In this document: piece by piece, positions 1 through 16,456 of the stretch
Numbering within the stretch: position 1 is the stretch's first letter
Layout: each line of letters opens with the position of its first letter
Position numbers and translations under genes: made by a program
IMG/VR virus record: IMGVR_UViG_2690315994_000023
Source of the DNA: a virus
Lineage: Duplodnaviria > Heunggongvirae > Uroviricota > Caudoviricetes
Strand: one strand, 5' to 3'
Length of the DNA stretch: 16,663 nucleotides
Notes under the pieces: model-generated
Databases searched by the model: none
Told to the model about the DNA's origin: nothing
What the model saw: the letters and a program-made list of their open reading frames with translations, nothing else

Positions 1-171
1 TACCGCCGTGAAGGTTACGAATATGATTGCGTGATGCCTGTTTATCAGTTCCGGCGTGATTTTTCTCTGGTACAGACCGCGCCGCATAACGTGCCCACCA
101 GCAACGCCAGGGCACGGGCAAACATCCAGAAGCTGAAAACCATGGTTAACGGATTCAGGGGCAAGAAATGA
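1..171 (+). CDS. 3' end of an upstream ORF (5'-truncated by the window edge), hypothetical protein
   Basis: Frame 1 is open from position 1 to TGA at 169..171, and the stop overlaps the ATG of the next gene (ATGA at 168..171). It is under 60 aa so absent from the ORF track. The second island has an analogous small ORF coupled to its replicase (11592..11873). Confidence 0.35.
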   Translation, partial: YRREGYEYDCVMPVYQFRRDFSLVQTAPHNVPTSNARARANIQKLKTMVNGFRGKK

Positions 172-740
172 AAAGCGCACCGAACTTAAAAAAACAGCCT
201 TACGACAAGATGACCGAAGTCATTATTTTTGCGGGTAGTGATGCCTGGGCACATGCGAAACAGTGGCAGGAACAGGACGGGCGACTGGCTGGCGATAATG
301 TGCCTCCCGTTGTGCTGGCTGATGATCAACTGGATGAACTGGCAGACCTGAGAATCATCGACGAGGGGCGCTATTGTGTCCGGCTGTACAAGGCAGGCCA
401 CATCAGGCCATCAAATATTAATGCCATTGCGCACAAGCTGGCGGCGGCGGGTGTAACTGATGCGAATTATTACCCCGAAGGGATGCACAGCCATATGCGG
501 GAGAACTGGCGCGAATACCTGGAACGGGTGCGCGGGAAAGAGCCGGCGGAAGAAAAAAACCACCAGCGAAAAACCACGCTACCGATGAGCGTTGGATCTA
601 CCGGATACGACACGCAACTGGATTACGTGGTTAAGGGGATTATTCCGGCGGTATCGCTATGCAGCATATACGGGGCTAGCGGGTCCTATAAATCATTCCT
701 TGCCGGATCGTGGGCGTGCCATGTTGCCACTGGTCGCTAG
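168..740 (+). CDS. Replication initiator, N-terminal part: conserved N-domain plus Walker A P-loop, ending at an in-frame TAG
   Basis: The first ~105 aa align with the N-terminus of the replicase at 11857..13545 (shared FAGSDAW, HAK, AGD..PPV, QLD.L..LRIID.GR, KLA.AGV). The ORF ends just after a P-loop-like IYGASGSYKSFLAG motif, at TAG 738..740. Confidence 0.75.
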   Translation: MKSAPNLKKQPYDKMTEVIIFAGSDAWAHAKQWQEQDGRLAGDNVPPVVLADDQLDELADLRIIDEGRYCVRLYKAGHIRPSNINAIAHKLAAAGVTDANYYPEGMHSHMRENWREYLERVRGKEPAEEKNHQRKTTLPMSVGSTGYDTQLDYVVKGIIPAVSLCSIYGASGSYKSFLAGSWACHVATGR

Positions 741-779
741 TGGGGAGGCCGCAGGGTTGCACATGGTGCGGTTCTCTAT

Positions 780-1568
780 GTGGTTGGTGAAGGCGGTATA
801 GGTGTTCCGCGTCGTGTAAAAGCCTGGGAGGTTGTGCACGATGAGCAGGTGAAAAATCTGTATCTGGTAAACCGCCCCATCTTTCCGGCTGCCCCGCTTG
901 ATGTTGATGAAATGGTTATCGCTGCCCGTCAGGTGGAGCGGGAAACGGGTAAACCTGTACGCATGATTATTCTGGATACGCTGGCGCGTTGCTTTGGTGG
1001 GAATGATGAAAATGATTCCCGTGATATGGGGGCGTTTATCCGTGGTTGTGACGAACTGAAACGACGCACAGGGGCCACGGTGCTGGTGGTTCACCATTCC
1101 GGCAAGGATGAGACGAAAGGCGCGCGCGGTTCCAGTGCATTTCGTGCTTCGCTGGATGCTGAATACCGGATACGCAGGGAGGACGCAGGAAGCGAAGCGC
1201 TGGTTATCTCATGCACCAAAATGAAGGACGCGGAGGAACTCAAAGAAGCCGCATATGACTTACGCGTGGTGGAGCTTTTTACCGACGCTGACGGTGAATT
1301 AATCACGTCGCTGGTGGTGGTGGATGATCCGCGCCCTCCTGTTGAACTGGAGCGCATCGAGGAGGCAGGGAACAAGACGGAAAACCATACCGCGCTATGG
1401 GGATGCATACGTTCACGCACACAGCACGGCGACAAGTGCACGATCCCGCTGTTACGTGACGATATGAAAAAGCTGGGGTATGACACAAAACACCTTAAAC
1501 GATGGTTAGCCAAACTGGAAAAAGACGACGTGATCTACATTGACGGTGATGATGTAGGACCACTGTAA
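780..1568 (+). CDS. Replication initiator, C-terminal part: RepA/DnaB-like RecA-fold ATPase core
   Basis: It is in the same frame as 168..740 (both starts are 0 mod 3). Read-through gives ...ACHVATGR-TAG-WGGRRVAHGAVLYVVGEGG..., the layout expected after Walker A in RepA-like helicases. VLVVHHSGKDETKGARGSSAFRASLD resembles the conserved helicase core. The GTG at 780 has no Shine-Dalgarno, so it is probably not an independent gene. Confidence 0.7.
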   Translation: MVGEGGIGVPRRVKAWEVVHDEQVKNLYLVNRPIFPAAPLDVDEMVIAARQVERETGKPVRMIILDTLARCFGGNDENDSRDMGAFIRGCDELKRRTGATVLVVHHSGKDETKGARGSSAFRASLDAEYRIRREDAGSEALVISCTKMKDAEELKEAAYDLRVVELFTDADGELITSLVVVDDPRPPVELERIEEAGNKTENHTALWGCIRSRTQHGDKCTIPLLRDDMKKLGYDTKHLKRWLAKLEKDDVIYIDGDDVGPL

Positions 1569-1569
1569 A

Positions 1570-1767
1570 AAGTGGGCATTAAAAGTGGGAAAGGTGGGCG
1601 ATTTAACGGAATTTTAACAAAATTACCCACTTTCCCACGTGTATATATCCCAAAAAGTGGGCACTAAAAAAATACCTATGAAACAAGATGATATAAATCC
1701 CAAATTTCCCACGTTGGACGAAGTGGGAAAACGTAAAAAGTGGGCGAAAAAAGTGGGTAGAGGTGGG
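1570..1767. repeat. Iteron array, putative origin of replication of island 1
   Basis: Eleven copies of a 7-bp core. AAGTGGG or AGGTGGG sits at 1570, 1583, 1592, 1655, 1721, 1738, 1751 and 1761. Its reverse complement CCCACTT or CCCACGT sits at 1626, 1634 and 1708. An A/T-rich stretch (1601..1625) lies between the clusters, directly downstream of the replicase. Confidence 0.6.
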
Positions 1768-1770
1768 CAA

Positions 1771-2022
1771 ATGACTCAAAAACACAGAGACAGAACAGAG
1801 CCAAAATATAAAGCGTTAGACATGACAGAGCACGCCTTAAAGGTGGCAATCAGAACGATAGACCGCCACGCGGGGGAAGGATACGCGAAAGCACATCCCG
1901 AACTGATAAGCGCATTCATGACCACGACGGCGGCAAATTTTGCCACGCTGACAGAGCGGGAGATTGCGGAAGCTGAACAGGTGACAACCATCAACGTTAA
2001 AACCGGAGAGGTGGAATCATGA
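1771..2022 (+). CDS. Hypothetical protein (83 aa), translationally coupled to ssb
   Basis: ATG at 1771 is preceded by GAGGTGGG (Shine-Dalgarno-like). The track ORF 1639..2022 extends upstream through the iterons, and that extension is probably not coding. The stop overlaps the ssb start (ATGA at 2019..2022). Confidence 0.45.
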   Translation: MTQKHRDRTEPKYKALDMTEHALKVAIRTIDRHAGEGYAKAHPELISAFMTTTAANFATLTEREIAEAEQVTTINVKTGEVES

Positions 2023-2429
2023 CAGCACAGATAGCAGCTTACGGGCGGCTGGTGGACGACCCGCAGGTAAAACAGACCAGCAAGGGCACACCAATGACGC
2101 TGGCACGTATGGCGGTATCGTTGCCATGTAGTCAGGCGCAGGATGGGCAGGCTACGTTATGGCTATCGGTCATCGCATTTGGTAAGCAGGCCGACTTCCT
2201 GGCTAAACATCAAAAAGGCGATGTTGCCAGCGTATCCGGCACGATGCAGGTCAGCCAGTGGACCGGACAGAACGGGGAAACGCGGCAGGGTTATCAGGTT
2301 ATTGCAGACAGCGTAATCAGTGCCCGTGCGGCACGTCCTGGCGGGAACAGACGCAAAACCACAGGCACACAGGGTAATCAGCCACCAGCGGGAGGCGATG
2401 ACCCTTACGGTGACGGTATTCCGTTCTGA
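2019..2429 (+). CDS. ssb: Single-stranded DNA-binding protein (SSB, OB-fold)
   Basis: The OB-fold region (LWLSVIAFGKQADFLAKHQKGDVASVSGTMQVSQWTGQNGETRQGYQVIADSV) parallels the bacterial SSB core. It is followed by a Gly/Pro/Gln-rich linker and an acidic tail ending DDPYGDGIPF, matching the SSB C-terminal D-D-D-I-P-F type tip. Confidence 0.85.
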   Translation: MTAQIAAYGRLVDDPQVKQTSKGTPMTLARMAVSLPCSQAQDGQATLWLSVIAFGKQADFLAKHQKGDVASVSGTMQVSQWTGQNGETRQGYQVIADSVISARAARPGGNRRKTTGTQGNQPPAGGDDPYGDGIPF

Positions 2430-2439
2430 GGGGGTGGCG

Positions 2440-2712
2440 ATGGTACATGACCGCATAGCGGAAGAACTCGAGGCGAAAGGCTTTTACCGGAGGGCGGCGG
2501 CGCGATGGGGTGAAGTCATGCTGCTGGTGGAGACAGACAAGGAACGGCATCAGGTTACGATGCGACGGCTGGAATGTTCCAGGAAGGCACAGAAGCCACC
2601 GGAGCCGCCGGATAACTTCGGAGACCTGAGAAAGGCAGTAGATCGCACTTATGCTGAAATGGGTATAGATGGTGTAAGCGATGAAATATGGCGAAATTAC
2701 CAGGACAGATAA
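2440..2712 (+). CDS. PerC-family small transcriptional regulator (probable)
   Basis: A 90-aa protein starting at ATG 2440 (Shine-Dalgarno GAGGGGGTGG). The N-terminal IAEELEAKGFYRRAAARWGEVM matches, from memory, the PerC-family signature (AE.LE.KG..RRAA.RW). The track ORF 2320..2712 is an upstream extension overlapping ssb. Confidence 0.5.
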   Translation: MVHDRIAEELEAKGFYRRAAARWGEVMLLVETDKERHQVTMRRLECSRKAQKPPEPPDNFGDLRKAVDRTYAEMGIDGVSDEIWRNYQDR

Positions 2713-2718
2713 TCACAC

Positions 2719-2741
2719 AGCCGGAGCAATCCGGCTTTTTG
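2719..2741 (+). terminator. Rho-independent terminator after the PerC-like gene
   Basis: AGCCGGA-gcaa-TCCGGCT hairpin followed by TTTTTG. Confidence 0.7.
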
Positions 2742-2860
2742 TCATGTTTTGTAAATTATTTGTTCGTGGTTGTTCCACGTTGCTCGCTGACCGGAACGGC
2801 ATATTTTACCCGACCTGAATCATGATTATTCTCGCCCGTGGTGCCAGGACGCTGGGGCCA

Positions 2861-2910
2861 TTTTCCCGCCTGTTAATGTGCTCGCCAATATTCATTACCA
2901 GGCGGGAAAA
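2861..2910. promoter_or_regulatory. Perfect 12-bp inverted repeat (TTTTCCCGCCTG ... CAGGCGGGAAAA) with 26-bp spacer, upstream of the capsid gene
   Basis: Arms at 2861..2872 and 2899..2910 are exact reverse complements. The repeat lies in the ~285-bp leader between the PerC-like gene and the capsid operon. It has T upstream and A downstream on both strands, so it is not a terminator. Confidence 0.4.
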
Positions 2911-2999
2911 CGATCGGTGCGATTACTGATTTCCTTATGAAAAACGGTTGAGTGTTTGCCGCGTCCTGGAGTTCCTTACTTAACCCCAGGACTTTTTTT

Positions 3000-4157
3000 A
3001 TGCCGAGAATAATCGAATTACGCCAGCAGAAAACCGCCATTAAAAATCAGATGCGCGACATGCTGGAGAACGCGGAAAAAGAAAACCGCAGTCTTAACGA
3101 TGCTGAGGGCGCAAAATTTGACGAATTACGCGCTAAAGCTGAATCCCTCGATAAAGACATTTCCCGCCTTGAAGCCATTGCAGACGAAGAGCGCAGCAAG
3201 CCAGGTAAAAGCAGCCAGACCACTGACCCCGCAGAATTACGCAACTACATTCTGACAGGTGAAACCCGCGCATTAAGTACAGGCGTTCCCGCTGATGGTG
3301 GTTATACCGTTATCCCCGAACTGAACACCGAAATCATGCGAATGCTGACGGATGAATCCACCATGCGCCGCATCTGTACCGTGAAGAAAATCAGCAGCAA
3401 CGAGTTTAAGCAGCTTGTTTCCGCTGGCGGTGCGACCGTTAACCACGGTGAAGAGGGTAAGACACGCGAACAGACCAGCACCCCGCAGATTAACGAGGTG
3501 AGCATTAAGCTGTATCCGGTCTATGCGTACCCGCGCACCACACAGGAAATCGTGGATTTTTCCGATGTGGACATCCTTTCATGGCTGACGGGTGAGATTG
3601 GCGACACCTTCACGGAAACCGAAGAAAGCGATCTGGTTGTGGGCGACGGTGACAAAAAAGCAAAAGGCTTTTTATCCGTACCCCGTGCAGAGAAGAACGA
3701 CAAAGAGCGTGATTTTGGTACGTTACAGGTAATTAAACCTTCCGAATCTCTGGCGTGGACATCTGCGGACCCGCTGATCGACCTGAAATTTGCATTACAT
3801 AAAAAATACCGCAAAAACGCGGTCTGGGTGGTTAACTCCACGACGGCCGCAAAACTTCAGAAGGTGAAGAACGCGAACGGTGATTACATCTGGCGCGACC
3901 GTTTACAGGCGGGTGATCCTGATACGTTGCTGGGCCTTCCGGTCGAATATCTGGAGTTTATGCCTGATAACGTTATTGCCCTGGGTGACTTCAAACGCGG
4001 TTACTACATTGTTGATCACGAAACAGGTGTTCGCACCAGACCGGACAACCTCACAGAGCCGGGCTTCATCAAAATTTTCACGCAGAAATATTTAGGCGGT
4101 GGCGTGGTGGATTCGAACGCGATCAAGATTCTGGAACTGCCACAGGACGACGATTAA
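3000..4157 (+). CDS. Major capsid protein, HK97 family, with N-terminal scaffold-like delta domain
   Basis: ATG at 3000 with AGGA 8 nt upstream. The N-terminal ~100 aa are coiled-coil and charged (IIELRQQKTAIKNQMRDMLENAEKENRSLNDAEGAKFDELRAKAESL), typical of the HK97 delta domain. Length and C-terminal region fit the HK97 capsid fold. Context is protease and portal immediately downstream. Confidence 0.88.
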   Translation: MPRIIELRQQKTAIKNQMRDMLENAEKENRSLNDAEGAKFDELRAKAESLDKDISRLEAIADEERSKPGKSSQTTDPAELRNYILTGETRALSTGVPADGGYTVIPELNTEIMRMLTDESTMRRICTVKKISSNEFKQLVSAGGATVNHGEEGKTREQTSTPQINEVSIKLYPVYAYPRTTQEIVDFSDVDILSWLTGEIGDTFTETEESDLVVGDGDKKAKGFLSVPRAEKNDKERDFGTLQVIKPSESLAWTSADPLIDLKFALHKKYRKNAVWVVNSTTAAKLQKVKNANGDYIWRDRLQAGDPDTLLGLPVEYLEFMPDNVIALGDFKRGYYIVDHETGVRTRPDNLTEPGFIKIFTQKYLGGGVVDSNAIKILELPQDDD

Positions 4158-4167
4158 CAGCATACAG

Positions 4168-4188
4168 AAGGGGCTTAAAAGCCCCTTT
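4168..4188 (+). terminator. Hairpin plus T-run between capsid and protease genes (possible attenuator)
   Basis: AAGGGGC-ttaaaa-GCCCCTT followed by TAGTGTTTT. Confidence 0.4.
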
Positions 4189-4211
4189 AGTGTTTTATGG
4201 GTGAAAAAATT

Positions 4212-4769
4212 ATGAAGAGTATGGAAATCCGGTCATCGGAAATCACCACCAGCGCCAGCAACACGCTTACAGGCTACGTTGTTCGCTGGGATAACCTTTC
4301 AGAGCTGCTATGGGGGGAGTTTTACGAAAAATTCCAGCGGGGAGCGTTTACTGAATGGCTTGCAGCGGGTAATGACGTTCGCGGCCTGTATGAGCATGAC
4401 CACAGCATGTTACTGGGGCGCACCCGTTCCGGCACGCTGAAACTGGAAGAGGACGACACAGGGTTACGCTTTGAACTGACCCCACCGGATACCAGTACAG
4501 GGCGGGACGTTATCGAACTGGTTAAACGAGGTGATATATCCGGCATGAGCTTTGGCTTTCGCTCCCGTAAGGATGTATGGGATACCACAACAGATCCATG
4601 CGTGCGCACCGTGCTGGTGGCGGAACTGTACGAAATTACCGTTACATCCGTACCGGCTTACCCTGATTCCGGCGTGGAGCTGGCCCGCCGCTCCCTGTAC
4701 GAGCAGCACCCCGAAAAAATGCCGCGTGCGGATAATCGCCGCTGGTGGGCGGATTTAGCGGGGGTGTGA
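4212..4769 (+). CDS. Prohead maturation protease, HK97 family
   Basis: Motifs GYVVRWDN, LYEHD, LGRTRSGTLKLEEDDTGLRFE, GDISGMSFGF and ELYEITVTSVPAYPDS fit HK97-type prohead proteases. ATG 4212 has GGTGA upstream; the alternative ATG at 4197 has no ribosome binding site. Confidence 0.85.
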   Translation: MKSMEIRSSEITTSASNTLTGYVVRWDNLSELLWGEFYEKFQRGAFTEWLAAGNDVRGLYEHDHSMLLGRTRSGTLKLEEDDTGLRFELTPPDTSTGRDVIELVKRGDISGMSFGFRSRKDVWDTTTDPCVRTVLVAELYEITVTSVPAYPDSGVELARRSLYEQHPEKMPRADNRRWWADLAGV

Positions 4770-4770
4770 T

Positions 4771-5982
4771 ATGTGGCCTTTCAGAAGAAAAAAAGAGCAG
4801 CGCAGCATGACGCTTGATGAGTTTATGGCGCTGGCCGGCACATCGAACACGGGGGCGGGTGAGTACGTATCATCGGGGACAGCGGAATCACTGCCCGCCG
4901 TCATGAACGCCGTGACGGTCATCTCTGAGGCGGTGGCTACCATGCCGTGTTACCTGTACCTGGTACGCAATGAGAAGGGGAAGGAGGCCCGCGAGTGGCT
5001 TGATTCTCATCCGGTCGATCACATCCTCAACGAGCGCCCGAACGCGTGGCAAACCCCCTACCAGTTTAAGCGAATGATGATCCGCCACTGCCTGTTAAAC
5101 GGTAATGCTTATGCGGTGATTCGGTGGGGGCGTGATGGTTTTCCGGTGGCTTTACATCCTTACCCGCCGCAGTCGGTGAACGTGGAGCAGACAGGTGAGC
5201 ATAACTGGCGCTACTGCATCACTGACGCCTACACCGGAAACACCCGCAACTATTTACCGTGGGAGGTTCTCCACCTTCGTTACTCCACGGATGACGGTTT
5301 TATGGGGCGCTCACCTGTAACCATCTGCCGCGAATCGCTGGGGCTTGGGCTGGCCCAACAACGCCACGGCGCGAGCGTGATGCGTGATGGCATGATGGCG
5401 GCAGGGGTTATCACGTCAGGCGAATGGCTGGACGGCGTGAAGGGCAAACAGGCATTAGCCGCACTGGAACGCTACAAAGGGGCCAGAAACGCCGGAAAAA
5501 CGCCCATCCTTGAAGGGGGTATGAGCTATCAGCAGCTGGGCATGAGTAATCAGGATGCTGAATGGCTGGCCTCCCGTCGCTTCACCATTGAAGACATCGC
5601 CCGAATGTTCAACGTCTCGCCGATTTTTTTGCAGGAATACAGCAACAGCACCTACAGCAATTTCAGCGAGGCAAGCCGCGCATTTCTCACCATGACGATG
5701 CGCCCGTGGCTGGCGAACTTTGAGCAGCAGATAAAAAACGCCCTGCTGGTGGCCTCACCTGTACCTGGTATCCGGTATCAGGTGGAGTTTGACAGCGCGG
5801 ACCTGTTACGGGCCACACCTGGCGAACGCTTTGCCACCTATGAACGCGGCATCAAATCCGGCGTTATGTGCCCGAACGAAGCCCGCGAACGTGAAGGGCT
5901 GTCCCCGCGTGATGGTGGTGATGAGTTCAGCCAGGCATGGAAACAGGAAGTAAAAATCAGCGAGGGAGAAAAACCGGAATGA
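4771..5982 (+). CDS. Portal protein, HK97 family
   Basis: A 403-aa protein starting 2 nt after the protease stop. Its length, composition and position in the head module fit phage portal proteins. Confidence 0.85.
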   Translation: MWPFRRKKEQRSMTLDEFMALAGTSNTGAGEYVSSGTAESLPAVMNAVTVISEAVATMPCYLYLVRNEKGKEAREWLDSHPVDHILNERPNAWQTPYQFKRMMIRHCLLNGNAYAVIRWGRDGFPVALHPYPPQSVNVEQTGEHNWRYCITDAYTGNTRNYLPWEVLHLRYSTDDGFMGRSPVTICRESLGLGLAQQRHGASVMRDGMMAAGVITSGEWLDGVKGKQALAALERYKGARNAGKTPILEGGMSYQQLGMSNQDAEWLASRRFTIEDIARMFNVSPIFLQEYSNSTYSNFSEASRAFLTMTMRPWLANFEQQIKNALLVASPVPGIRYQVEFDSADLLRATPGERFATYERGIKSGVMCPNEAREREGLSPRDGGDEFSQAWKQEVKISEGEKPE

Positions 5983-6317
5983 ACATAGGGCGACTGCGTG
6001 ACAGGGTAACGATTCAGACCCTGAAACAGACCAGGGATATAACCGGCGAAATACTCGAAACGTGGGTGGACGGTCACACACTCTGGGCAAGCGTGAACAT
6101 GATCAGCAGCAAGGAGGCCATTTCATCGGGTGCAGAACTGGCGACTGGAACGGTAAGGATATGGATACGCTACAGGAAGGACATCAACGCCACCAGCCGG
6201 ATAAAGGTCAATACGGGGCCGCTGGCGGGGCGTGTACTGAATATCATCGGGCAGCCGCTGCCGGATGCCGCCAGGACACGCCTTGAAATTCTTTGTCGTG
6301 AGGGCGCGGAAAAATGA
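5979..6317 (+). CDS. Head-closure / head-tail joining protein (SPP1 gp16-like)
   Basis: ATG overlaps the portal stop (ATGA). A ~112-aa protein with RDRVTIQ ... GTVRIWIRYRKDI ... RVLNIIG motifs typical of phage head-tail joining proteins. Confidence 0.7.
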   Translation: MNIGRLRDRVTIQTLKQTRDITGEILETWVDGHTLWASVNMISSKEAISSGAELATGTVRIWIRYRKDINATSRIKVNTGPLAGRVLNIIGQPLPDAARTRLEILCREGAEK

Positions 6318-6610
6318 CAGAAGAACTTATCACCCTGGAAGAAGTGAAACTCCATTGCCGCATCGATGGCGACGAGGAAGACCAGTTAATCAGCGGATAC
6401 ATTGCCGCATCGCTTGAGGCGTGCCAGATACATATAGGCAGGCGCTTTGATGACGGGCTGGAGTTCACGCCAGCCATAAAGATTGGCTGCATGATGTTTA
6501 TCGCTCACCTGTACGAGAATCGCCAGCTGGTAGCGGATAACGCAAAAACGCGCGTACCCATGACGATTGGCGCGCTCTGGACGGCTTACCGTGATGTGGG
6601 GGTGTACTGA
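6314..6610 (+). CDS. Head-tail connector / DNA-packaging adaptor (gp6-like)
   Basis: ATG overlaps the previous stop. The N-terminal LITLEEVKLHCRIDGDEEDQLI and the IAHLYENR motif match gp6-like head-tail connector proteins. Confidence 0.7.
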   Translation: MTEELITLEEVKLHCRIDGDEEDQLISGYIAASLEACQIHIGRRFDDGLEFTPAIKIGCMMFIAHLYENRQLVADNAKTRVPMTIGALWTAYRDVGVY

Positions 6611-7050
6611 TGCCGTGGCAACCATTAAGACGATGCACAGAACCAGGCTGTAACAGGCGCGTGAAGTCCGGCAAGTGTGAGGAGCACAGGCGGGCGGCAT
6701 GGCGTGCAGAGGATGCCAGACGAGGACACCGCCGCGCGCGTGGGTACTCCAGACAGTGGGACAAATACCGCGCCATGTATCTGAGTAAAAACCCGTTATG
6801 CGTGCGATGCCTTGAGAAGGGGATATATACGCCCGCCGTGGTGGTGGATCACATTATCCCGATTAATGGCGGTGATGATGTTCTCTTCTGGCCCGAATGG
6901 AACCATCAACCATTGTGCCAGGCGTGTCATAACCAGAAAACGAAATGGCTTGATCCGGCAACAAAAAGCAAGCGTGCCGCAGGTGGATTTCATGAAGAGG
7001 AAGAACGGGCCGCTAACCGCAATAACTGGATGTATGACGCTGATGAATGA
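6610..7050 (+). CDS. HNH endonuclease (phage packaging-associated)
   Basis: Cys-rich zinc-binding motifs (CTEPGC..., CVRC) and the HNH signature VDHIIP ... NHQPLCQACHNQKT. It sits immediately upstream of terS/terL, as in cos-type HK97-like phages. Confidence 0.85.
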   Translation: MPWQPLRRCTEPGCNRRVKSGKCEEHRRAAWRAEDARRGHRRARGYSRQWDKYRAMYLSKNPLCVRCLEKGIYTPAVVVDHIIPINGGDDVLFWPEWNHQPLCQACHNQKTKWLDPATKSKRAAGGFHEEEERAANRNNWMYDADE

Positions 7051-7216
7051 GCGGGAACAAAACCGCCTTATCCGTGGACTTATAAGGCAGCGTGACGCAT
7101 GGAAGACACAGGAAACAGGGCATAAAGATAAAGCGTCAGGACGCGCAGAACGCATCACAGCGAAGCGATTAACCGACCGTGACCGCGAGGTTATGGAATG
7201 TTTCCGCAATCGCTGA
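7034..7216 (+). CDS. Hypothetical small basic protein (about 60 aa)
   Basis: ATG at 7034 (or 7043) in a frame overlapping the HNH 3' end. The track ORF 6812..7216 is an implausible upstream extension inside HNH. Confidence 0.3.
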   Translation: MTLMNEREQNRLIRGLIRQRDAWKTQETGHKDKASGRAERITAKRLTDRDREVMECFRNR

Positions 7217-7227
7217 TGAGGCTGTAT

Positions 7228-7272
7228 GACGGGGTGGGGGGCGTTTTCAGGACAAACCCGACCCCGCCGGGC
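7228..7272. other. Candidate cos / terminase recognition region (G-run and C-run imperfect dyad)
   Basis: GACGGGGTGGGGGGCG, a 13-bp spacer, then CCCGACCCCGCCGGGC, in the only sizeable intergenic gap between HNH and terS. Confidence 0.25.
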
Positions 7273-7339
7273 ACCGAACGCCTCCTCAAATTTTTATGCA
7301 CGGGAATTTTTTGAAAAATAATCTGGCGAAAAAATAAGC

Positions 7340-7696
7340 ATGGCAAGACCACCGAAAGCCCCCGCCTACCTGGATGATATCGCCGTGAAGCAGTGGCGGG
7401 AAAAATCGCGGCAGCTTGCGGAACGGGGAGACCTTACCCCCGCCGACTGGAGTAATCTGGAACTGTATTGTGTCAACTACTCCATTTACCGGAAAGCCGT
7501 TGCAGACCTTGCGGCGCGCGGGTTCAGCATTGTTAACAGTCAGGGCGGCGAGAGCAGAAACCCCGCATTAAGCGCAAAATCCGACGCTGAAAGAGTGATG
7601 ATAAAAATGGCCTCCTTGCTCGGTTTTGACCCGATAAGCCGCCGTAAAAATCCACCGGAAACAGAAGAAGAGGACGAGCTTGACCGCCTGGAATAA
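7340..7696 (+). CDS. terS: Terminase small subunit, P27 family
   Basis: A 118-aa protein directly upstream of and overlapping terL. The N-terminal PKAPAYLDDIAVKQWREKSRQLAERGDLTPADWSNLELYCVNYSIYRKA matches P27-family small terminases. Confidence 0.75.
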   Translation: MARPPKAPAYLDDIAVKQWREKSRQLAERGDLTPADWSNLELYCVNYSIYRKAVADLAARGFSIVNSQGGESRNPALSAKSDAERVMIKMASLLGFDPISRRKNPPETEEEDELDRLE

Positions 7697-9341
7697 GTAC
7701 GCAGAAGACGTAAAAACGGGCAAAATTCCGGCCTGTAAACGGCTGAAACAGGCCGTTAAACGGTACTTTTCGGACCTTGAAAGCCCCCTTTACACGTTCG
7801 ATCGTGAGGTTGTGGAGCGGTTTATTGCCTTTTCCAGGGTGTGCCCGCACGTAAAAGGCGCAATGCGCGGTAGCCCCATTGAGCTGGAGCCGTGGCAGCA
7901 GTTCGCCTTTGCGTGCATCCTCGGCTTTAAGGTTAAGGCCACCGGACGGCGCAAATACACGAGCGCCTTTATCGAAGTGCCGCGCAAAAATGCGAAATCC
8001 ACGACCGCCGCGATTCTGGCTAACTGGTTTTTGATTATGGAGAACGGTCAGCAGGATATCTACACCGCAGCGGTGAGCCGTGACCAGGCGCGGATCGTCT
8101 TTGATGATGCGCGTCAGATGTGCCTTTTATCCCGACCGTTACGCAGGCGGGTGAATATTCAGGCGCATAAGGTGATACACCCGAAAAGCAACAGCCTGTT
8201 AAAGCCGCTGGCAGCAAAAGCGGCAACCATTGAAGGTACAAACCCGAGTCTTGCCATTGTGGATGAATATCACCTGCACCCTGACAACGGGGTTTATTCC
8301 GCGCTTGAACTGGGAATGGGGGCGCGTCCGGAGGGGCTGTTATTTGCCATCACCACATCGGGGAGCAACGTTGTTTCAGCCTGTAAACAACACTACGACT
8401 ATTGCTGCCAGATACTGGATGGTGAAGAGGTGAACGAATCCATGTTCGTGCTGATTTACGAGCTGGATGATGAAAGCGAGGTTGACGATCCGGCGATGTG
8501 GATAAAGGCGAATCCAAATATCGATGTTTCCGTCGATCGTGAAAAACTGGCCTCAACCATCCAGAAAGCGCGGGGTATTCCGTCGCAGTGGGTGGAAATG
8601 CTCACCAAGCGATTCAATATCTGGTGTCAGGGGGCTACGCCGTGGATGGGTAACGGTGCATGGGCGGAGTGCGCCGGAACGTTCACGGAGGAAGATTTAC
8701 ACGGCCAGGAGTGTTACGCGGGGCTGGATTTATCATCCACAAGCGATATTTCCAGCGTGTGCTATGCCTTTCCGGTCGGTAAAACCATTATGCTGGTTTC
8801 CCGTCATTATCTGCCGGAGTTCCAGCTACAGAACCCCGCCAATAAAAACCGCGCTGTCTATCGTCAGTGGGCTAAAGCGGGCTGGATACGCACAACGCCT
8901 GGCGACTGCATTGATTACGACCGGATCAGAGATGACATCATGCAGGACGCGGAGAAATTTAATATCAGGCTGGTGGGCTTTGATACGTGGAACGCCACGC
9001 ATCTCAGAACGCAATTACAGGGGGCAGGTTTTGAGGTGGAGCCGTTCCCGCAAACCTACCTCAGATTCAGTCCGGCGGCGAAATCGTTCGAAGTTTTTGT
9101 TAACCGCAGGGTGATTGTGCATCGTGGCGATCCGGTGTTGTCCTGGTCGATGAGTAACGTTGTGATGCAGAGTGACGCGAACGCCAATATCAAGCCGAAC
9201 AAGAAAAAATCACCGAACAAGATAGACCCGAGCGTGGCGGCACTGATGGCGTTTGGCACATTCCAGGCAGAGCATGAGGATTTTGAATTCGATATGAGCG
9301 ATAGCCATAAGCAGCGACTTGCCGAATTTACCGGGATTTGA
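7680..9341 (+). CDS. terL: Terminase large subunit
   Basis: A 553-aa protein with a Walker A-like segment (EVPRKNAKST), a Walker B-like stretch (LAIVDEYH) and a C-terminal nuclease-like region. The start is uncertain: TTG at 7680, overlapping the terS 3' end. Confidence 0.88.
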   Translation: MTAWNKYAEDVKTGKIPACKRLKQAVKRYFSDLESPLYTFDREVVERFIAFSRVCPHVKGAMRGSPIELEPWQQFAFACILGFKVKATGRRKYTSAFIEVPRKNAKSTTAAILANWFLIMENGQQDIYTAAVSRDQARIVFDDARQMCLLSRPLRRRVNIQAHKVIHPKSNSLLKPLAAKAATIEGTNPSLAIVDEYHLHPDNGVYSALELGMGARPEGLLFAITTSGSNVVSACKQHYDYCCQILDGEEVNESMFVLIYELDDESEVDDPAMWIKANPNIDVSVDREKLASTIQKARGIPSQWVEMLTKRFNIWCQGATPWMGNGAWAECAGTFTEEDLHGQECYAGLDLSSTSDISSVCYAFPVGKTIMLVSRHYLPEFQLQNPANKNRAVYRQWAKAGWIRTTPGDCIDYDRIRDDIMQDAEKFNIRLVGFDTWNATHLRTQLQGAGFEVEPFPQTYLRFSPAAKSFEVFVNRRVIVHRGDPVLSWSMSNVVMQSDANANIKPNKKKSPNKIDPSVAALMAFGTFQAEHEDFEFDMSDSHKQRLAEFTGI

Positions 9342-9873: not shown

Positions 9874-11109
9874 ATGGCCGAAAATAAACTCTCAGATGTT
9901 CAATTGCGTGCGTTAACCCGCAAAGTCATCGAAAAACCTTTTGATGTTGCTGACGGTGGCAGCCTTTCTGTTCGCGTTACACCATCAAGGCGCAAAATCC
10001 TTGATGGCGAGAAGAGACCGGCCAATAACATCCAATGGTTGTTCCGTTATAAGAATAAGCATAAAAGCGCCAATACTTTGACGCTAGTGCTGGGCAAGTA
10101 TCCTGCCTTATCTCTTGCTGAGGCGAGGGTGAAACGCGACCAATGCAAACGGTGGCTTGCTCATAATCTAGATCCTAAAGACCAGTTTGACCAAGAGTCA
10201 GCAAAAACCATGAAACCTGTCACTATCAGGGAAGCATTGGAACGCTGGATTAATGAGTACGCGGCGGAAAACCGGGTCAACTTTGAAAGGCATAGACGCC
10301 AATTCGAAAGACATATTTATCCTTTCATCGGCGAATTGCCACTTGAACAGTGCTCTAAAGCAAGATGGATGGAGACATTTAGCAGAATCAAAAAAGTCGC
10401 GCCGGTAGCAAGCGGCTACATATTAGGTAACTGCAAGCAGGCGTTGATTCACAACCGCAGGCTGCACGATGTTTACAGTGATGCGCTGGAGGATATCAAA
10501 GTTACTGATGTTGGAAGAAAGCAGGCAAAACGTGATCGTGTTTTAACTTCTGAAGAACTTAGTGGCCTTTGGAATGCGCTAAAAAGCGAATATGCGTTTC
10601 TACCTTACTACACCGCGCTTTTAAAATTGCTAATAGTGTTTGGTGCAAGAACACAAGAAATTCGTCTTTCGACATGGTCGGAATGGAACGTGAAAGAATG
10701 GATTTGGACAGTTCCGCGAGAACATAGCAAGGGTGGGGAGAAAATCATCAGACCCGTGCCTGAATCTATACAGCCATTTATTTTACAGCTACGCCAAAAT
10801 CATCTTGATAGCGGAATGCTGCTTGGTGAAATGAAGAAACCCGAAGCTGTCAGCCAGTGGGGGCGTATCTTATACAGGCGATTAGAGCATTCAACGCCGT
10901 GGACGTTGCATGACCTGCGCCGCACTTTTGCCACCAGTCTAAATAACTTGGGGATAGCCCCGCATGTGGTTGAACAGTTGCTGGGCCACTCAATGCCAGG
11001 AGTGATGGCGGTGTACAACCGTAGCCAGTACATCCCGGAAAAACGGTTAGCCTTGGACAAATGGATAAAATATTTAGAAAAAATAAACCTTTTAAAATCA
11101 GATAATTAA
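9874..11109 (+). CDS. int: Tyrosine recombinase / integrase, P4 type
   Basis: An N-terminal arm-binding-like region (LSVRVTPSRRKILDGEKRPANNIQWLFRY) and a C-terminal catalytic region with HDLRRTFATSL and LLGHS...AVYNRSQY (tyrosine nucleophile). ATG 9874 is preferred over the track's TTG at 9802. Confidence 0.88.
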   Translation: MAENKLSDVQLRALTRKVIEKPFDVADGGSLSVRVTPSRRKILDGEKRPANNIQWLFRYKNKHKSANTLTLVLGKYPALSLAEARVKRDQCKRWLAHNLDPKDQFDQESAKTMKPVTIREALERWINEYAAENRVNFERHRRQFERHIYPFIGELPLEQCSKARWMETFSRIKKVAPVASGYILGNCKQALIHNRRLHDVYSDALEDIKVTDVGRKQAKRDRVLTSEELSGLWNALKSEYAFLPYYTALLKLLIVFGARTQEIRLSTWSEWNVKEWIWTVPREHSKGGEKIIRPVPESIQPFILQLRQNHLDSGMLLGEMKKPEAVSQWGRILYRRLEHSTPWTLHDLRRTFATSLNNLGIAPHVVEQLLGHSMPGVMAVYNRSQYIPEKRLALDKWIKYLEKINLLKSDN

Positions 11110-11218
11110 AAATTGATGATTATATAGAGTTATGTAGCGTTATTTGCAGTTAAGTTTATGAATTTAAAGGGTATTTACTGCTGATACAATTTGAGTATTA
11201 TTGTCATGTAGTAATAAA

Positions 11219-11243
11219 AAGCCCCCAGCAGAACTGAGGGCTT
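11219..11243 (-). terminator. Hairpin followed by a T-run only on the minus strand
   Basis: AAGCCC-c-CAG loop CTG-a-GGGCTT. The + strand has AATAAAAA upstream, so the U-run is on the minus-strand transcript, and no T-run follows on the + strand. Confidence 0.35.
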
Positions 11244-11403
11244 GAATAAGGCGGGGATCGGTTCACGTCGCCAAACAGAAAACCGAACCCCTTAATACCA
11301 AAAAGCCGGTGAAGGCTGTAATGGTCGCGTTCTTTGTTAACGCAACATAATCATAAATCATTACAGACCACATATCCACCGGCCATGTTTTGAGGGCCGT
11401 AAG

Positions 11404-11583
11404 ATGGAATTACTGACTGCTAAGCAAGTCACAACACTAACAACATTATCCCGCATGACTATCTGGCGCTATATCCAGGCTGGCACGTTTCCTAATTGCA
11501 TAAAATTAGGGCCAAAACGCGTGGCCTGGCGGCGCAAAGATGTTATGGCGTGGCTTGAAAGCCGCCAGCCAGTACAGCGCTGA
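11404..11583 (+). CDS. alpA: AlpA-family (MerR-like HTH) prophage transcriptional regulator
   Basis: A 59-aa ORF, below the track cutoff. LLTAKQVTTLTTLSRMTIWRYIQAGTFPNCIKLGPKRVAWRRKDVMAWLESRQ matches the AlpA helix-turn-helix pattern. It sits directly downstream of int, as in P4-like elements and PICIs. Confidence 0.8.
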   Translation: MELLTAKQVTTLTTLSRMTIWRYIQAGTFPNCIKLGPKRVAWRRKDVMAWLESRQPVQR

Positions 11584-11591
11584 GGTGGCTT

Positions 11592-11873
11592 ATGAAGAAA
11601 ACAACCGTAAATCAGGCTATCAGTCGCTATAACAGCCTGTTGCGTAACCCACAGCGCCAGTTAACCGTTGGCGAACTTACCGCCCAGCGTATGGCGGCAG
11701 CACAATTATTGTTGCAAGCATGCATTCGCGAAGGTGTAAACCGCCCGTGGACTATTGTTTCACGTCACGCCGCTATGGCTGATAGCCTGGTGCCGTTTCG
11801 CATCAGCGATTCTGAATCATGGGCGATGTATCTGGAGTTAAAACGCGGGGTGCGATATGAGAAACGCGCCTAA
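11592..11873 (+). CDS. Hypothetical protein (93 aa), translationally coupled to replicase 2
   Basis: ATG 11592 follows the GAGGTGG Shine-Dalgarno, and the 3' end overlaps the replicase start by 17 nt. Confidence 0.5.
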   Translation: MKKTTVNQAISRYNSLLRNPQRQLTVGELTAQRMAAAQLLLQACIREGVNRPWTIVSRHAAMADSLVPFRISDSESWAMYLELKRGVRYEKRA

Positions 11874-13545
11874 CGTTAAGCTATTACCTAAAGACCCTTT
11901 TACGGAAGCAATTATTTTTGCCGGTTCTGACGCTTGGAGCCATGCCAAGGGCTGGGAAGAAGGAATGGGTAAACAAGTTGCCGGTGACACTACTCCTCCT
12001 GTCTATCTTGGGCCAAGACAACTGGATGATTTAGATAATCTACGAATTATCGACGATGGTCGCCGGTCTGCGCGGGTATATCTGGCTGGTGATATTAAGC
12101 AACTTCAAATCAGCACTATTGCTGACAAGCTGGCAGTGGCTGGAGTTAAGGAAGCCCGTTTATTTAAAGGCATTACTGACCGTGAACCGGAAAAATGGAA
12201 CATGGACAGGCTTAGAGACGCCGCCCTACGCGGTGAAAGCCTGGTGGGCATGCTGCGCAAAGAAGAACGAGCAACCGCCGCAGCAACTGTAAAAGACATT
12301 CACGATATGGCTCCTGTATTAATGACAACCTGGCCAAATATTGGAAGCAATGGCCAGCCTTTAAACACACGCCCTAATGTTGAACGTCTATTAGATAACT
12401 ACAGCATTTCTGCAAAATATAATGAGATTAGCAAGGACGTTGAGGTTTTAGTACCTGGCGTTAGTGGCGGTTCAGATGCTCGCGATAACTGCGCTGTGAG
12501 TGAAATTTTAAGCCTCGCCGCACTGAACCGGTTACCAATGAGTAATATTGAAGGTCATATCAAAACTATCGCTGTGCGCAATACTTATAATCCTGTCAGG
12601 GATTTCATCAATCAACGTGAATGGGATGGACGAAGCCGATTTGCAGACCTGCTGAATACTATCAGCACGCCAGATGACTACAGTCGCGATCTGCTGGCCA
12701 TGCTGGTGCGTCGTTGGTTGCTGTCTGCCGTGGCGGCTGCTTACTTAGAAGCGGGTTTCTGGTCCAAAGGCGTGCTGGTTTTCCAGGGCGAGCAGTCACT
12801 GGGTAAAACAGCATGGTTTAAAGCGCTTCTGCCCCCTGACAATCGCAACCTGGTTAAGGTGGGAGCAACTATTGACCCCGGCAATAAAGACAGCGTGGCC
12901 AGCGCAATTAGTCACTGGCTTGTTGAGCTAGGCGAATTGGATGCGACGTTTCGCAAGGCGGATATTGCCAAGCTCAAAGCATTTATCAGCCAGGACCGTG
13001 ATGACCTGCGCCGCCCTTATGACCGGCTTGAATCGAAGTACCAGCGCCGCACCGTGTTTTTTGCGTCAGTGAACCCGAAACACTTCCTGGCGGATGACAC
13101 CGGGAACGTGCGCTGGTGGACCATTCCTGTAACTGCCGTTAACTACGAGCATGGCATAGACACACAACAATTATGGGCCGAAGTTCTTTCCTGGTTTGAA
13201 GCAGGTGAACGCTGGTGGCTGGATCGTGATGAAGAAGCCATGCTGGAAGTAGTGAACGAACAGCACGGGCAAACTGACCCGATTGAAGAAATGATATTGG
13301 CGCGTTTTGATTGGAACAGTGATCGCCTGGCTGCATATATAGAAATGACTGCAACGGATGTTCTGTTGTCTATTGGGCAGGATCGGCCAACAAAATCCCA
13401 GGCAACGCAGTGCGGTAACATTCTGCGAAAACTGACTGGAAGGGATGCACGTAGAACAAGTAAAGGGCGTTTTTACCTAATGCCACCGAAAGTTTTTGGA
13501 CAGCAAGACCATAGCTATTTTGATGGGCCTAACCGCCAGTTTTGA
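11857..13545 (+). CDS. Replication initiator: conserved N-domain + P4-alpha/VirE-like P-loop NTPase (primase-helicase type)
   Basis: The N-terminal ~105 aa are homologous to those of ORF 168..740. The central and C-terminal part has Walker A GEQSLGKTAWFKAL and downstream motifs (LVELGELD, RTVFFASVNP) of the P4-alpha / D5 / VirE-type superfamily-3-like NTPase found in satellite primases. Confidence 0.8.
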   Translation: MRNAPNVKLLPKDPFTEAIIFAGSDAWSHAKGWEEGMGKQVAGDTTPPVYLGPRQLDDLDNLRIIDDGRRSARVYLAGDIKQLQISTIADKLAVAGVKEARLFKGITDREPEKWNMDRLRDAALRGESLVGMLRKEERATAAATVKDIHDMAPVLMTTWPNIGSNGQPLNTRPNVERLLDNYSISAKYNEISKDVEVLVPGVSGGSDARDNCAVSEILSLAALNRLPMSNIEGHIKTIAVRNTYNPVRDFINQREWDGRSRFADLLNTISTPDDYSRDLLAMLVRRWLLSAVAAAYLEAGFWSKGVLVFQGEQSLGKTAWFKALLPPDNRNLVKVGATIDPGNKDSVASAISHWLVELGELDATFRKADIAKLKAFISQDRDDLRRPYDRLESKYQRRTVFFASVNPKHFLADDTGNVRWWTIPVTAVNYEHGIDTQQLWAEVLSWFEAGERWWLDRDEEAMLEVVNEQHGQTDPIEEMILARFDWNSDRLAAYIEMTATDVLLSIGQDRPTKSQATQCGNILRKLTGRDARRTSKGRFYLMPPKVFGQQDHSYFDGPNRQF

Positions 13546-13554
13546 GGTGATACT

Positions 13555-13779
13555 ATGAGTTATCGCGTATATATCATTGCTTTTGACCCGGAACACGGCA
13601 CCTACACCGAAACCGAAATCATGGAAGGTTTCGCCACTGAACAGGAAGCGGTAGACCATGCTCGCAATAGGCTGCCAGAGGTGCAGCAGGAACTGGCCAA
13701 GTTGGGTGAAAACCTGCTATGCAGCTACCGCATAAGGGTAGTGGATTCCGCTGAAATCTTGCCGTTTCTCCGCTCATAA
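13555..13779 (+). CDS. Hypothetical protein (74 aa)
   Basis: ATG 13555 follows the GAGGTGA Shine-Dalgarno, and a terminator lies downstream. Confidence 0.45.
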   Translation: MSYRVYIIAFDPEHGTYTETEIMEGFATEQEAVDHARNRLPEVQQELAKLGENLLCSYRIRVVDSAEILPFLRS

Positions 13780-13802
13780 TATCACAACGGTTGTTACCCA
13801 TT

Positions 13803-13834
13803 GCCCTGGCGAATGCCGGGGCTTTTTTTATTTT
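13803..13834 (+). terminator. Rho-independent terminator
   Basis: GCCCTGGC-gaat-GCCGGGGC hairpin followed by TTTTTTTATTTT. Confidence 0.7.
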
Positions 13835-13848
13835 CAAAGTGACGCCTA

Positions 13849-14151
13849 GGTGTCATTAATTTATAAGGTGTCATGGTAGGTGTCATTGTTCTCAAGCCAT
13901 AACCCGCAAGGGTTGCGACATTACTAATGACACCTATGACACCTATGACAGCATTTTTAAAGAAAATAACGACCACTGTAATAATGTAACAGTGGTCGTT
14001 ATACTTTATAGAAATGGGTGTCATGGTGTCACAGGTGTCATTCATTACAGTATCTTGTTTGTATTTTTCTTTAATAATCAGCGTGTTTCCCGCTATGACA
14101 CCTAATGACACCTTTCCAACATAACGCCGTCATGGTGACATTAGGTGTCAT
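13849..14151. repeat. Iteron array, putative origin of replication of island 2
   Basis: GGTGTCAT at 13849, 13867, 13879, 14017, 14034 and 14144. Its reverse complement ATGACACC at 13927, 13936, 14095 and 14105. Variants GGTGTCAC at 14025, GGTGACAT at 14134, and a partial at 13945. The array has an AT-rich centre. Confidence 0.65.
13966..14002. repeat. Perfect 14-bp inverted repeat (ATAACGACCACTGT / ACAGTGGTCGTTAT) with 9-bp AT spacer, at the centre of the iteron array
   Basis: Exact reverse-complement arms at 13966..13979 and 13989..14002. Confidence 0.6.
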
Positions 14152-14545
14152 CGCCATCTGCTGCCAAAAAAGTCAAGGTACTTCCGAGGGGGGTACAGCC
14201 TGCGGGGGCATTGGTCCCGCGTAATTCGCGTTGTGCGTGCCCCTACAAAACTCACTTTATGATTACGTCAAGTAAATCAATCATTTATGTGAATCCTATC
14301 AAAGCACTGGAACCATAATTGCGAGATTGCAAAATAAAGCGAACACGTTTTACACACGCTGAATTGTAAAGATGTGTAAATATCGATTACGCCGGATTAT
14401 GCCTGGTTATTTGCAAGTATTCATGGTTATAAGTTACTGATTTTACATTAAAAAGCTCACATTGTGGCTATTGTGTTCGGCCTGGTTACTGTATATCTTT
14501 AAGTCATTCCAGACGATTTATTGCACAACAACCGGAGCATTTTTA

Positions 14546-15430
14546 ATGAACGTTTTATCTCAACTTATCAACGACGCGTTGAACCACCAGGGCGGCCACA
14601 TTCGCACTGATGGCAACGGTGACATTACTCAATTCATCCCTGTGGAACCTGCAGCAGTTCGCTACCTGTCCATGAATGACGTGCTGACCCCGAAAGGCGG
14701 CAAGCAGACCACCTTCAACGCTGTTCTGGCTGAACGTTCACTGGTGGCACAGGCAGGCGCTGAAATCATCCGCATCCCTGGCCCGATGACCACGCCTCCG
14801 ACTGGCAACACCGGCGCAACGACTGGCCGCGAAGTGGCTGACCGCTTCGTTGTCGTTCGCCCTGGTGCGTTCGCCAAAGTGGCTGACGGCGAAGAAATCA
14901 CCATGAGCGGCCTGCCTTACCTGGTATCAGCGTTCAACCACAACAACGCACCGGCTTACGGCGTGGGCTACACCCTTAGCCGCAAGCAGATGAAACACGA
15001 CTTCGCAGACGATACCACGCTGGAAGTGGTCAACACCGCCATTGAACGCGGAATTGCTGACCTGGCTGATTTCGTACTGCTGAACCACCTGGAAACCGCA
15101 GCGGAAACGCTGGCCAGCCCGTCATTCACCGCAGTGGCGCAGAAGATTGCAGCCAAAAACCTGCGCTTTGATGAAGTTAAAGCCATTGTTGGCGGTGATT
15201 GCACCGGCCTGGAACTGCAAGACGGCGTTCTGCGTGCCTACGGTGTACGCGCTGAAATCAGCGGCCAGACTTCCAGCACAATCATTGGCGCTTTCGGCAA
15301 TGCAGCCGTTGCCCTGGATGATGAAATCCGCGTCACCGCCCGCCGCGTGCTGAATGGTGCCGTTGAAATCGTTGTGTGGGTGAACGCATCCGCACTGGTG
15401 CCTGACTCAACTATGTTCTGGAAGGCTTGA
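14546..15430 (+). CDS. Hypothetical protein (294 aa), Ala/Gly/Thr-rich, strongly optimised codon usage
   Basis: ATG 14546 has GGAG 7 nt upstream. Codon choice is heavily biased (CTG, CGC/CGT, GGC, ACC, AAC, TTC, GAA), unlike neighbouring genes. It has no signal peptide and no recognisable catalytic motif. Confidence 0.6.
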   Translation: MNVLSQLINDALNHQGGHIRTDGNGDITQFIPVEPAAVRYLSMNDVLTPKGGKQTTFNAVLAERSLVAQAGAEIIRIPGPMTTPPTGNTGATTGREVADRFVVVRPGAFAKVADGEEITMSGLPYLVSAFNHNNAPAYGVGYTLSRKQMKHDFADDTTLEVVNTAIERGIADLADFVLLNHLETAAETLASPSFTAVAQKIAAKNLRFDEVKAIVGGDCTGLELQDGVLRAYGVRAEISGQTSSTIIGAFGNAAVALDDEIRVTARRVLNGAVEIVVWVNASALVPDSTMFWKA

Positions 15431-15432
15431 TC

Positions 15433-15747
15433 ATGTGGTGGGGCAGCAAAAAAGCGGCAGCGGAGCGCGCTGCCCTGCCGGGTGAAATCCTGGCAGCTAT
15501 CGAAGGTGTGGCCATGTATGTGCGCCACGGTGATGAAAACACACCGCGCATCGTAGTGCAGCCGGTTGGCTGGTCAGGATTCATCTACAGCGATGACGCT
15601 GCTGAAAAATGGATTCGCAAGGCTTACCCGGAGCTTAAGCAGTACCAGATTGAACGCGCCGTGAATTACCTCGCTTCCCTGGTGCGCAGTCACTACCGCG
15701 AGCAGCGCCCGAAACAGAAGCGCGAAAGCTGGATGAACAGGTACTAA
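15433..15747 (+). CDS. Hypothetical protein (104 aa), translationally coupled to the upstream gene
   Basis: ATG 15433 starts 2 nt after the upstream TGA (TGATCATG). Confidence 0.5.
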   Translation: MWWGSKKAAAERAALPGEILAAIEGVAMYVRHGDENTPRIVVQPVGWSGFIYSDDAAEKWIRKAYPELKQYQIERAVNYLASLVRSHYREQRPKQKRESWMNRY

Positions 15748-15750
15748 GCC

Positions 15751-15915
15751 ATGAAACGACAAGAAACACGCCAGCACGTAACGGTACGCCTCGCCCCTGA
15801 CCTGGTGCGCCAGGTCGAAAGAGAGCAAGCCAAACTGGAACGCAGAACAGGCATCCGCCCTTCACGCAGCCAGGTGATTGAAAAGTTTCTGAGTAGCGGG
15901 CTGAACGGCAAATAA
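15751..15915 (+). CDS. Ribbon-helix-helix (CopG/Arc-like) DNA-binding protein, 54 aa
   Basis: Below the track cutoff. A predicted beta-strand VTVRLAP is followed by two helices (DLVRQVEREQAKLERRTG, SRSQVIEKFL), the classical ribbon-helix-helix layout. It starts 3 nt after the upstream stop. Confidence 0.55.
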   Translation: MKRQETRQHVTVRLAPDLVRQVEREQAKLERRTGIRPSRSQVIEKFLSSGLNGK

Positions 15916-16129
15916 TGGCCAAGAATACAGGTTTCACCGGTTCCCTGTGCCCCAAATAACCGGCCAAATTTAACCTTCATCGTTCCTCAGACGATGGATG
16001 CTGGAACCAGGTTGGTGGTCATCCTGGACGGTCAAAACCACCACTAATTCCACACCGGTTGCGCCGCACCTGTCACCTAAAAGCGCGCACTCACTTAATC
16101 ATCAACAACTATTGTTAGCGGCCAATACT

Positions 16130-16447
16130 ATGAAAAAACATGACCTGTACGAATCAATGAAAGAAGAAGCGCGTTTGATCCTTAGCGAAACAAAGCGTTT
16201 CCAAACCATTTCAGAGAAAAACCCTATCAGCTACGAAGCAGCCGACCTGCTGGCAAGCCTTCGCAACCGTTTAAACGCATTCGAACACATGACCGATGAA
16301 GCGGGCCGCATCATGCGTGACGAAGCGGAAAGCCACGCATCCGCCCTGGGACGCACGAAGTGGCAACCATCCAGCCGCATCAGTTCCGGTGAACGGGCCA
16401 AACGCCAGGCGGTGAAGCGCGGCGCTATCCTGGTACGGAGTGCATAA
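16130..16447 (+). CDS. Hypothetical charged, probably helical protein (105 aa)
   Basis: ATG 16130 is preferred. The track extension from 15998 is Ser/Thr/Pro/Trp-rich and low-complexity, so unlikely to be coding. Confidence 0.4.
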   Translation: MKKHDLYESMKEEARLILSETKRFQTISEKNPISYEAADLLASLRNRLNAFEHMTDEAGRIMRDEAESHASALGRTKWQPSSRISSGERAKRQAVKRGAILVRSA

Positions 16448-16456
16448 GGGGGCACC

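Follow-up and report, generated by a model that had tools for sequence, protein, structure and literature searches.

Introduction

When the replicase gene of a satellite island is interrupted by a single stop codon inside its ATPase domain, the question arises whether the gene has been knocked out, is read through, works as two separate pieces, or has been misread in sequencing. Such a stop lies near the left end of the stretch of DNA analysed here, a window of 16,663 nucleotides, which represents the first 16.7 kb of contig CYBJ01000003.1 in the E. coli assembly GCA_001284825.1 and begins at nucleotide 1 of that contig. The sequence-only reading of this window had pointed out two open reading frames (ORFs) parted only by an in-frame TAG, and had offered three explanations side by side, namely a recent nonsense mutation that makes the satellite replication-defective, an amber codon read through in a suppressor host, and a sequencing error.

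The island and its neighbourhood

To judge from its gene content, the island is a capsid-forming phage-inducible chromosomal island (cf-PICI) of the EcCIEDL933 type, a well-known kind of satellite, integrated in the E. coli chromosome. The cf-PICI family and its prototype EcCIEDL933 have been described (PMC10085698; bioRxiv 10.1101/2025.02.11.637232), and its core components include a capsid of its own, a protease, a portal, a head-tail adaptor or connector, TerS and TerL (PMC10085698). This core head and packaging set is present in the window. An intact module on the plus strand (3000-9341), identified by Pfam-annotated gene calls, encodes an HK97-type major capsid protein, an S78 prohead protease, a portal, a head closure protein, a head-tail connector, an HNH protein, a small ORF, TerS (P27 family) and TerL, and its products match those of a RefSeq relative. 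Between the replicase gene (rep) and this module lie a hypothetical gene (1771-2022), a gene for SSB (2019-2429) and one for a PerC-family regulator (2440-2712), all on the plus strand and intact. The replicase and its cognate origin also belong to the set, and here the replicase gene is present, though broken, and is followed by iterons at 1566-1770. Between the end of TerL (9341) and the next integrase (9874) no tail or lysis/holin genes were found, only a 63-aa ORF.

The resulting order of DUF4222, rep, SSB, PerC, capsid, protease, portal, head closure, connector, HNH, TerS and TerL is shared with islands of the EcCIEDL933 type. The present copy differs from them in the premature amber in rep and in the absence of the integrase/regulator end from the window. 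In E. coli 2013C-4991, a 99.8%-identical relative, an integrase and an HTH regulator start the island, and here the left end lies off the contig. None of the 13 other island genes in 1771-9341 differs in length from its counterpart in the intact relative, as would be expected if the event is very recent.

Behind the cf-PICI, in tandem with it, comes a second satellite-like element (9874-16663). It carries a tyrosine integrase gene (9874-11109) and a gene for a VapE-domain protein (11857-13545) preceded by an HTH gene, and several of its ORFs belong to no Pfam family. Related elements of both kinds are also found in E. coli 2017.06.05CC, where they occur in reverse order between yhdJ and fis and the last gene of the VapE element is annotated as a tail tape measure protein.

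The source contig begins inside the DUF4222 gene, and the assemblies of other strains often break within rep (contigs L004 at 10572, L005 at 1644 and L007 at 940). Many members of the 90% clusters are fragments named 'partial' RepA, AAA ATPase or 'DNA primase'. These assembly breaks would fit a left half of such islands that is repeated within genomes.

One reading frame with a single internal stop

The rep frame runs over 466 codons (168-1568), and its translation contains one internal stop, the TAG of codon 191 at 738-740. This premature amber stands on the plus strand between the codons of the conserved Gly189 and Trp192, where relatives have CAG for Gln191. Upstream of it, the N-terminal fragment (168-740, plus strand) starts with ATG, comprises 190 codons and the stop, and encodes the N-terminal domain (aa 1-147) together with the beginning of the ATPase domain, including Walker A. 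Downstream, the C-terminal remainder (780-1568, plus strand) is a GTG-started ORF of 262 aa that encodes Walker B, the HHSGK motif and the C-terminal specificity region, and lacks Walker A and a usable ribosome binding site. The two ORFs share one frame, and the 13 codons between them are all sense.

At the 5' end of rep, the DUF4222 gene, whose 3' part occupies 1-171 on the plus strand (Pfam DUF4222 and gene calls), ends in a TGA that overlaps the rep start as ATGA (168-171), and rep is therefore probably translationally coupled to DUF4222. For the downstream ORF, no Shine-Dalgarno-like sequence was found 5' of GTG 780, which is positioned 40 nt 3' of the stop, and a promoter/terminator scan of 1-2100 revealed no internal promoter. 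The only Shine-Dalgarno-like run ahead of an in-frame start is GGAGGT (827-832), which cannot serve GTG 834 because the spacing of 1-2 nt is too close; GTG 834 is moreover placed past both the Walker A and the Glu-strand motifs. With the AAA_25 domain interrupted at codon 191, no single ORF covers it, and the rep gene of this island is a RepA-family pseudogene rather than a working member of the family.

The interrupted domain

The frame at 168-1568 is predicted to encode a RecA-fold replication initiator-helicase of the RepA family (Pfam AAA_25). When translated through the stop, the protein matches AAA_25 with 151 bits (cut-off 27), continuously over profile positions 19-194. The N-terminal fragment accounts for positions 19-61 and the C-terminal fragment for 80-194, and it is therefore one domain that has been cut in two. 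Residues 1-466 of the read-through protein match positions 1-465 of the 465 in the PHROG 2850 profile (E = 2e-262); the family is therefore one of single polypeptides of such length. An NCBIfam search of Rep returned sub-threshold RadA matches only.

Along the plus strand, the catalytic motifs are the Walker A or P-loop motif GASGSYKS (672-695, aa 169-176), the strand GAVLYVVGEG (765-794, aa 200-209) ending in Glu208-Gly209, Walker B ILDTLAR (963-989), which includes D270, and the HHSGK motif (1083-1106, aa 309-313). K175, E208, D270 and HHSGK 309-313 are all encoded, and the uninterrupted protein is a putative ATPase and helicase. The C-terminal ~55 codons (1401-1565) presumably form an origin-recognition domain. 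The stop itself is located in the loop between the post-P-loop helix and the Glu208 strand.

RSF1010 RepA (PDB 1g8y) was the only solved relative found by sequence. The alignment is weak (aa 150-321, E = 0.006) and extends across the stop site, pairing GASGSYKS with the GGAGKS P-loop and GAVLYVVGEG with the VIYLPAED strand. The hexameric helicase of RSF1010 (1g8y/1nlf) thus resembles Rep in the RecA-fold core of aa 150-321, including the P-loop Lys, the Glu strand, Walker B and the HH motif, whereas Rep adds an N-terminal domain of ~147 aa and a C-terminal domain of ~145 aa and has Tyr in place of the Gly before the P-loop Lys. In RSF1010, the initiator (RepC) and the primase are separate proteins.

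The sequence-only reading had claimed that both ORFs belong to one frame, that the downstream ORF has no ribosome binding site, and that the stop divides one RecA-fold domain between GASGSYKS and GAVLYVVGEG. These claims are borne out by the translation, by the inspection of possible restart sites, by the split and read-through AAA_25 matches, and by the alignment to RepA-type helicases.

The residue that precedes the P-loop Lys is Gly in 53, Tyr in 47 and Phe in 28 of 138 representative homologues, and Tyr here. The Walker A of the clade can be written GxSGS[Y/F]KS, a family-wide departure from GxxxxGK[ST] at a normally invariant Gly. Residues 3-129 of Rep (window 168-550) have no Pfam family and match positions 84-190 of the 1064 in PHROG 864, a 'DNA primase' profile. 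'DNA primase' is also the name of some NCBI records for fragments of Rep, and no catalytic primase domain was identified in the N-terminal domain of Rep.

Homologues across the split site

The C-terminal fragment was searched against 1.84 billion representative proteins, and the 150 best matches were taken. About 140 of these homologues reach the start of the fragment, and with four exceptions they continue upstream of it for 43 residues or more. An alignment of 146 of the 150 matches contains 138 sequences that span the site, and in all of these Lys175, Glu208 and Gly209 are conserved without exception. The residue at position 191 varies (P in 45, D in 26, E in 19, S in 10, and others) and is always a sense residue; it is a variable loop position, and any amino acid inserted there would therefore probably leave an active protein.

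The four exceptions comprise P0037, P0137 and P0148, which begin at the V-L-Y-V strand, and P0048, which begins just downstream of it after 21 unrelated residues. Homologues consistently encoded as two proteins broken at this point, each with its own start, would have spoken for a natural split; what the loci of the exceptions displayed, where they were read, is frameshifts. P0037 is found on metagenome contigs L010 and L011, where the frameshift precedes Walker A, and P0148 on metagenome contig L012, where a frameshift separates two adjacent AAA_25 ORFs in the loop that holds the stop here, between Walker A and the Glu strand. Both were accordingly rejected as natural splits, the gene callers having restarted at the first start codon. 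The frameshifted homologues on these contigs (L010 2040-2420, L011, and L012 595-1000) are AlpA-linked, and their frameshifts could be assembly errors or independent pseudogenes.

Origin and rarity of the stop allele

The evidence on the origin of the stop is a specific single-base difference from relatives and involves no statistical pattern, so that a comparison with chance does not apply. The closest intact allele is a 466-aa gene in E. coli 2013C-4991; over 1401 nt, it and the present gene differ by a single base, the transition C738T, which changes CAG to TAG. The rep of E. coli CB9615 is identical to the window over nt 168-1400 save for the same base. Close homologues of Rep are single 466-aa genes, and in the 30 E. 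coli sequences that match window 1-2400 best, the annotation gives a single 'helicase RepA family protein' gene each.

We scanned an 81-mer centred on nt 738 against 5,426 complete E. coli genomes, among which 383 carry a matching stretch. The C allele is exact in 371 of the 383 carriers, and O157:H7 genomes share the identical rep 81-mer. The T allele has no exact match in any of the carriers or elsewhere in the 5,426 genomes, and a TAG-bearing 41-mer has none in 185,579 species-representative genomes and JGI metagenome contigs. A mutational hotspot at a Dcm site was considered as the cause of the transition and rejected: the wild-type context is GCCAGTG and not CCWGG, and deamination of 5-methylcytosine at a Dcm site therefore provides no explanation. 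The best reading of the stop would be an ordinary, recent and strain-private knockout that involves no new mechanism, and the first of the three options offered at the outset is thereby favoured by the comparison with related islands.

Alternative explanations

Could the true base at 738 be C, and rep be intact? The absence of the T allele from the complete E. coli genomes and the other scanned collections would fit such an error, as would the fact that the nearest allele differs at no other position. An exact look-up of the 190-aa product, however, returned five contigs, and in one of them, a 1.6-kb contig of the Logan run ERR6139593, the same TAG recurs in its interior. At 1403, 1409 and 1425 this contig has the CB9615-type bases instead of those of the window, and it breaks off just short of the next variant, a pattern that fits a sample with two rep variants in which small bubbles were collapsed. 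The T allele therefore exists in reads beyond those behind the source assembly; the run could be a re-sequencing of the same strain. In addition, the source contig is listed for two samples in the look-up, no known paralogue with T is available for mis-merging, and short-read assemblies of isolates seldom contain substitution errors in the consensus. Because the second run carries the TAG, the error proposed in the earlier reading is very unlikely. The contigs L004, L005 and L007, also returned by the look-up, were rejected as further cases, since they end at nt 737-739 and their match is an artefact of exact look-up; the C allele is present in L004 and L005, and L007, which ends at nt 737, does not reach the variable base. 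If the stop is real, some full-length Rep might still be made through a suppressor tRNA of the glnV/supE type or through basal near-cognate read-through. Suppression of the supE type would exactly reverse the change from CAG to TAG by restoring the wild-type Gln, and the tolerance of position 191 for many residues would make other insertions acceptable as well. Against this, a search of the window for tRNA genes that might act as suppressors found none, wild isolates seldom carry suppressor alleles, and a stop codon followed by U, as the TAG is here, is a comparatively efficient termination context in E. coli. A literature search on natural amber suppressors in E. coli yielded nothing usable. 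Programmed read-through would further be expected to leave a stop conserved among relatives, and as no relative has a stop at this site, with T in 0 of the 383 carriers, nothing suggests a programmed event or a conserved recoding site. On balance read-through is unlikely.

It is scarcely credible that the 190-aa product and a 262-aa product of re-initiation at GTG 780 assemble into an active ATPase. The homologues that begin at or near the V-L-Y-V strand, and the adjacent AAA_25 ORFs of L012, might be seen as precedents, but the genes on L010, L011 and L012 are frameshifted and reveal no conserved two-gene design, while one ORF is kept in 371 genomes. GTG 780, without a ribosome binding site and shortly past the stop, is a poor place to restart, and the cut would leave the P-loop and the catalytic Glu of a single fold on different polypeptides. 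A different way out would be for the knockout to be tolerated because Rep is provided in trans by a co-resident island whose iterons have the same specificity. Up to 12 places per genome match window 1-2400, the start of the contig inside the island would be consistent with a repeated left part, and the branch pattern of ERR6139593 suggests a second rep variant in that sample. Supply in trans, however, needs the same Rep C-terminus and the same iteron type. The second variant in ERR6139593 has a CB9615-type C-terminus, which goes with different iterons (AAGTGAG), and what the second element of the window has is a VapE-type protein unrelated to Rep, so that this form of rescue is highly unlikely. 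Taken more broadly, the proposal that the cf-PICI persists as a conditionally replicating satellite, with the amber suppressed at a low level or the function supplied by a co-resident island, is quite unlikely; if true, it would describe a satellite dependent on another satellite or on the decoding state of its host.

The presumed replication origin and the specificity of Rep

The presumed replication origin of the island (1566-1770) follows directly after the rep stop codon. Nine of the 10 ARGTGGG sites in the window fall within 1570-1767, in both orientations, around stretches of ~66% A+T. In the origins of SaPIs, which have the same layout, the C-terminal winged-helix domain of Rep reads iterons that lie directly downstream of rep (PMC9371898). 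In a comparison of the window with CB9615 (window 1401-1770 versus 7401-7770 of its sequence L002), the Rep C-terminus and the iterons of the two islands diverge jointly from codon 412 through the origin and become similar again at the next gene, whereas the 1233 nt of rep upstream of the variable end are identical except for the TAG. The iterons are AAGTGGG in the window and in 2013C-4991, and every one of them is AAGTGAG in CB9615. This co-variation supports the view that Rep may be an origin-specific initiator as well as a helicase, and the Rep C-terminus and the origin together look like an exchangeable specificity cassette.

The self-loading initiator-helicases of SaPIs (Rep/PriRep) share with the present Rep the succession of an N-terminal domain, an ATPase domain and a C-terminal domain, the downstream bidirectional iterons around an AT-rich core, and, presumably, the origin specificity of the C-terminal domain (PMC9371898). 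They differ in being SF3 or SF6 helicases, whereas Rep is a RecA-fold protein of the RepA/DnaB-like kind (AAA_25). Rep is therefore analogous, and not homologous, to the SaPI Rep proteins in its ATPase class.

Predicted consequences and significance

Taking these lines together, the stop is very probably a recent, private nonsense mutation, C738T, in the rep gene of a cf-PICI, which would leave the satellite without autonomous replication. With Gln191 turned into an amber, translation would stop shortly beyond the P-loop, with 190 residues made. This product would keep the N-terminal domain and the P-loop and would be without the Glu strand, Walker B, the HH/sensor motifs and the C-terminal domain, the part of Rep that would presumably read the AAGTGGG iterons directly downstream. 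A functional restart product is not expected, and one that did arise would be without the P-loop. Given a truncated Rep and no restart product, the island should be unable to fire its own origin. Upon induction by a helper phage, it would then excise, its origin would stay silent, and its amplification and packaging would be poor as a result. The loss of Rep activity and the replication defect are predicted here from the position of the stop within the gene.

Untranslated mRNA can expose the genes that follow it to Rho-dependent polarity, and the ~830 nt of rep mRNA beyond the stop could have this effect on the downstream genes of the island.

For annotation, the two ORFs should be recorded as one rep pseudogene (Q191amber) and not as two 'putative prophage proteins', and it should not be taken for granted that this copy of the island is mobilisable at normal frequency. 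As a natural rep-null allele that is isogenic at rep with the intact copy of 2013C-4991, it may offer, together with that copy, a ready-made control pair for asking how far the transfer of a cf-PICI depends on the island's own replication. The importance of the mutation beyond annotation is small. The more useful lead is the co-varying cassette of Rep C-terminus and iterons, which may help to explain how islands of this kind exchange their origin specificity.
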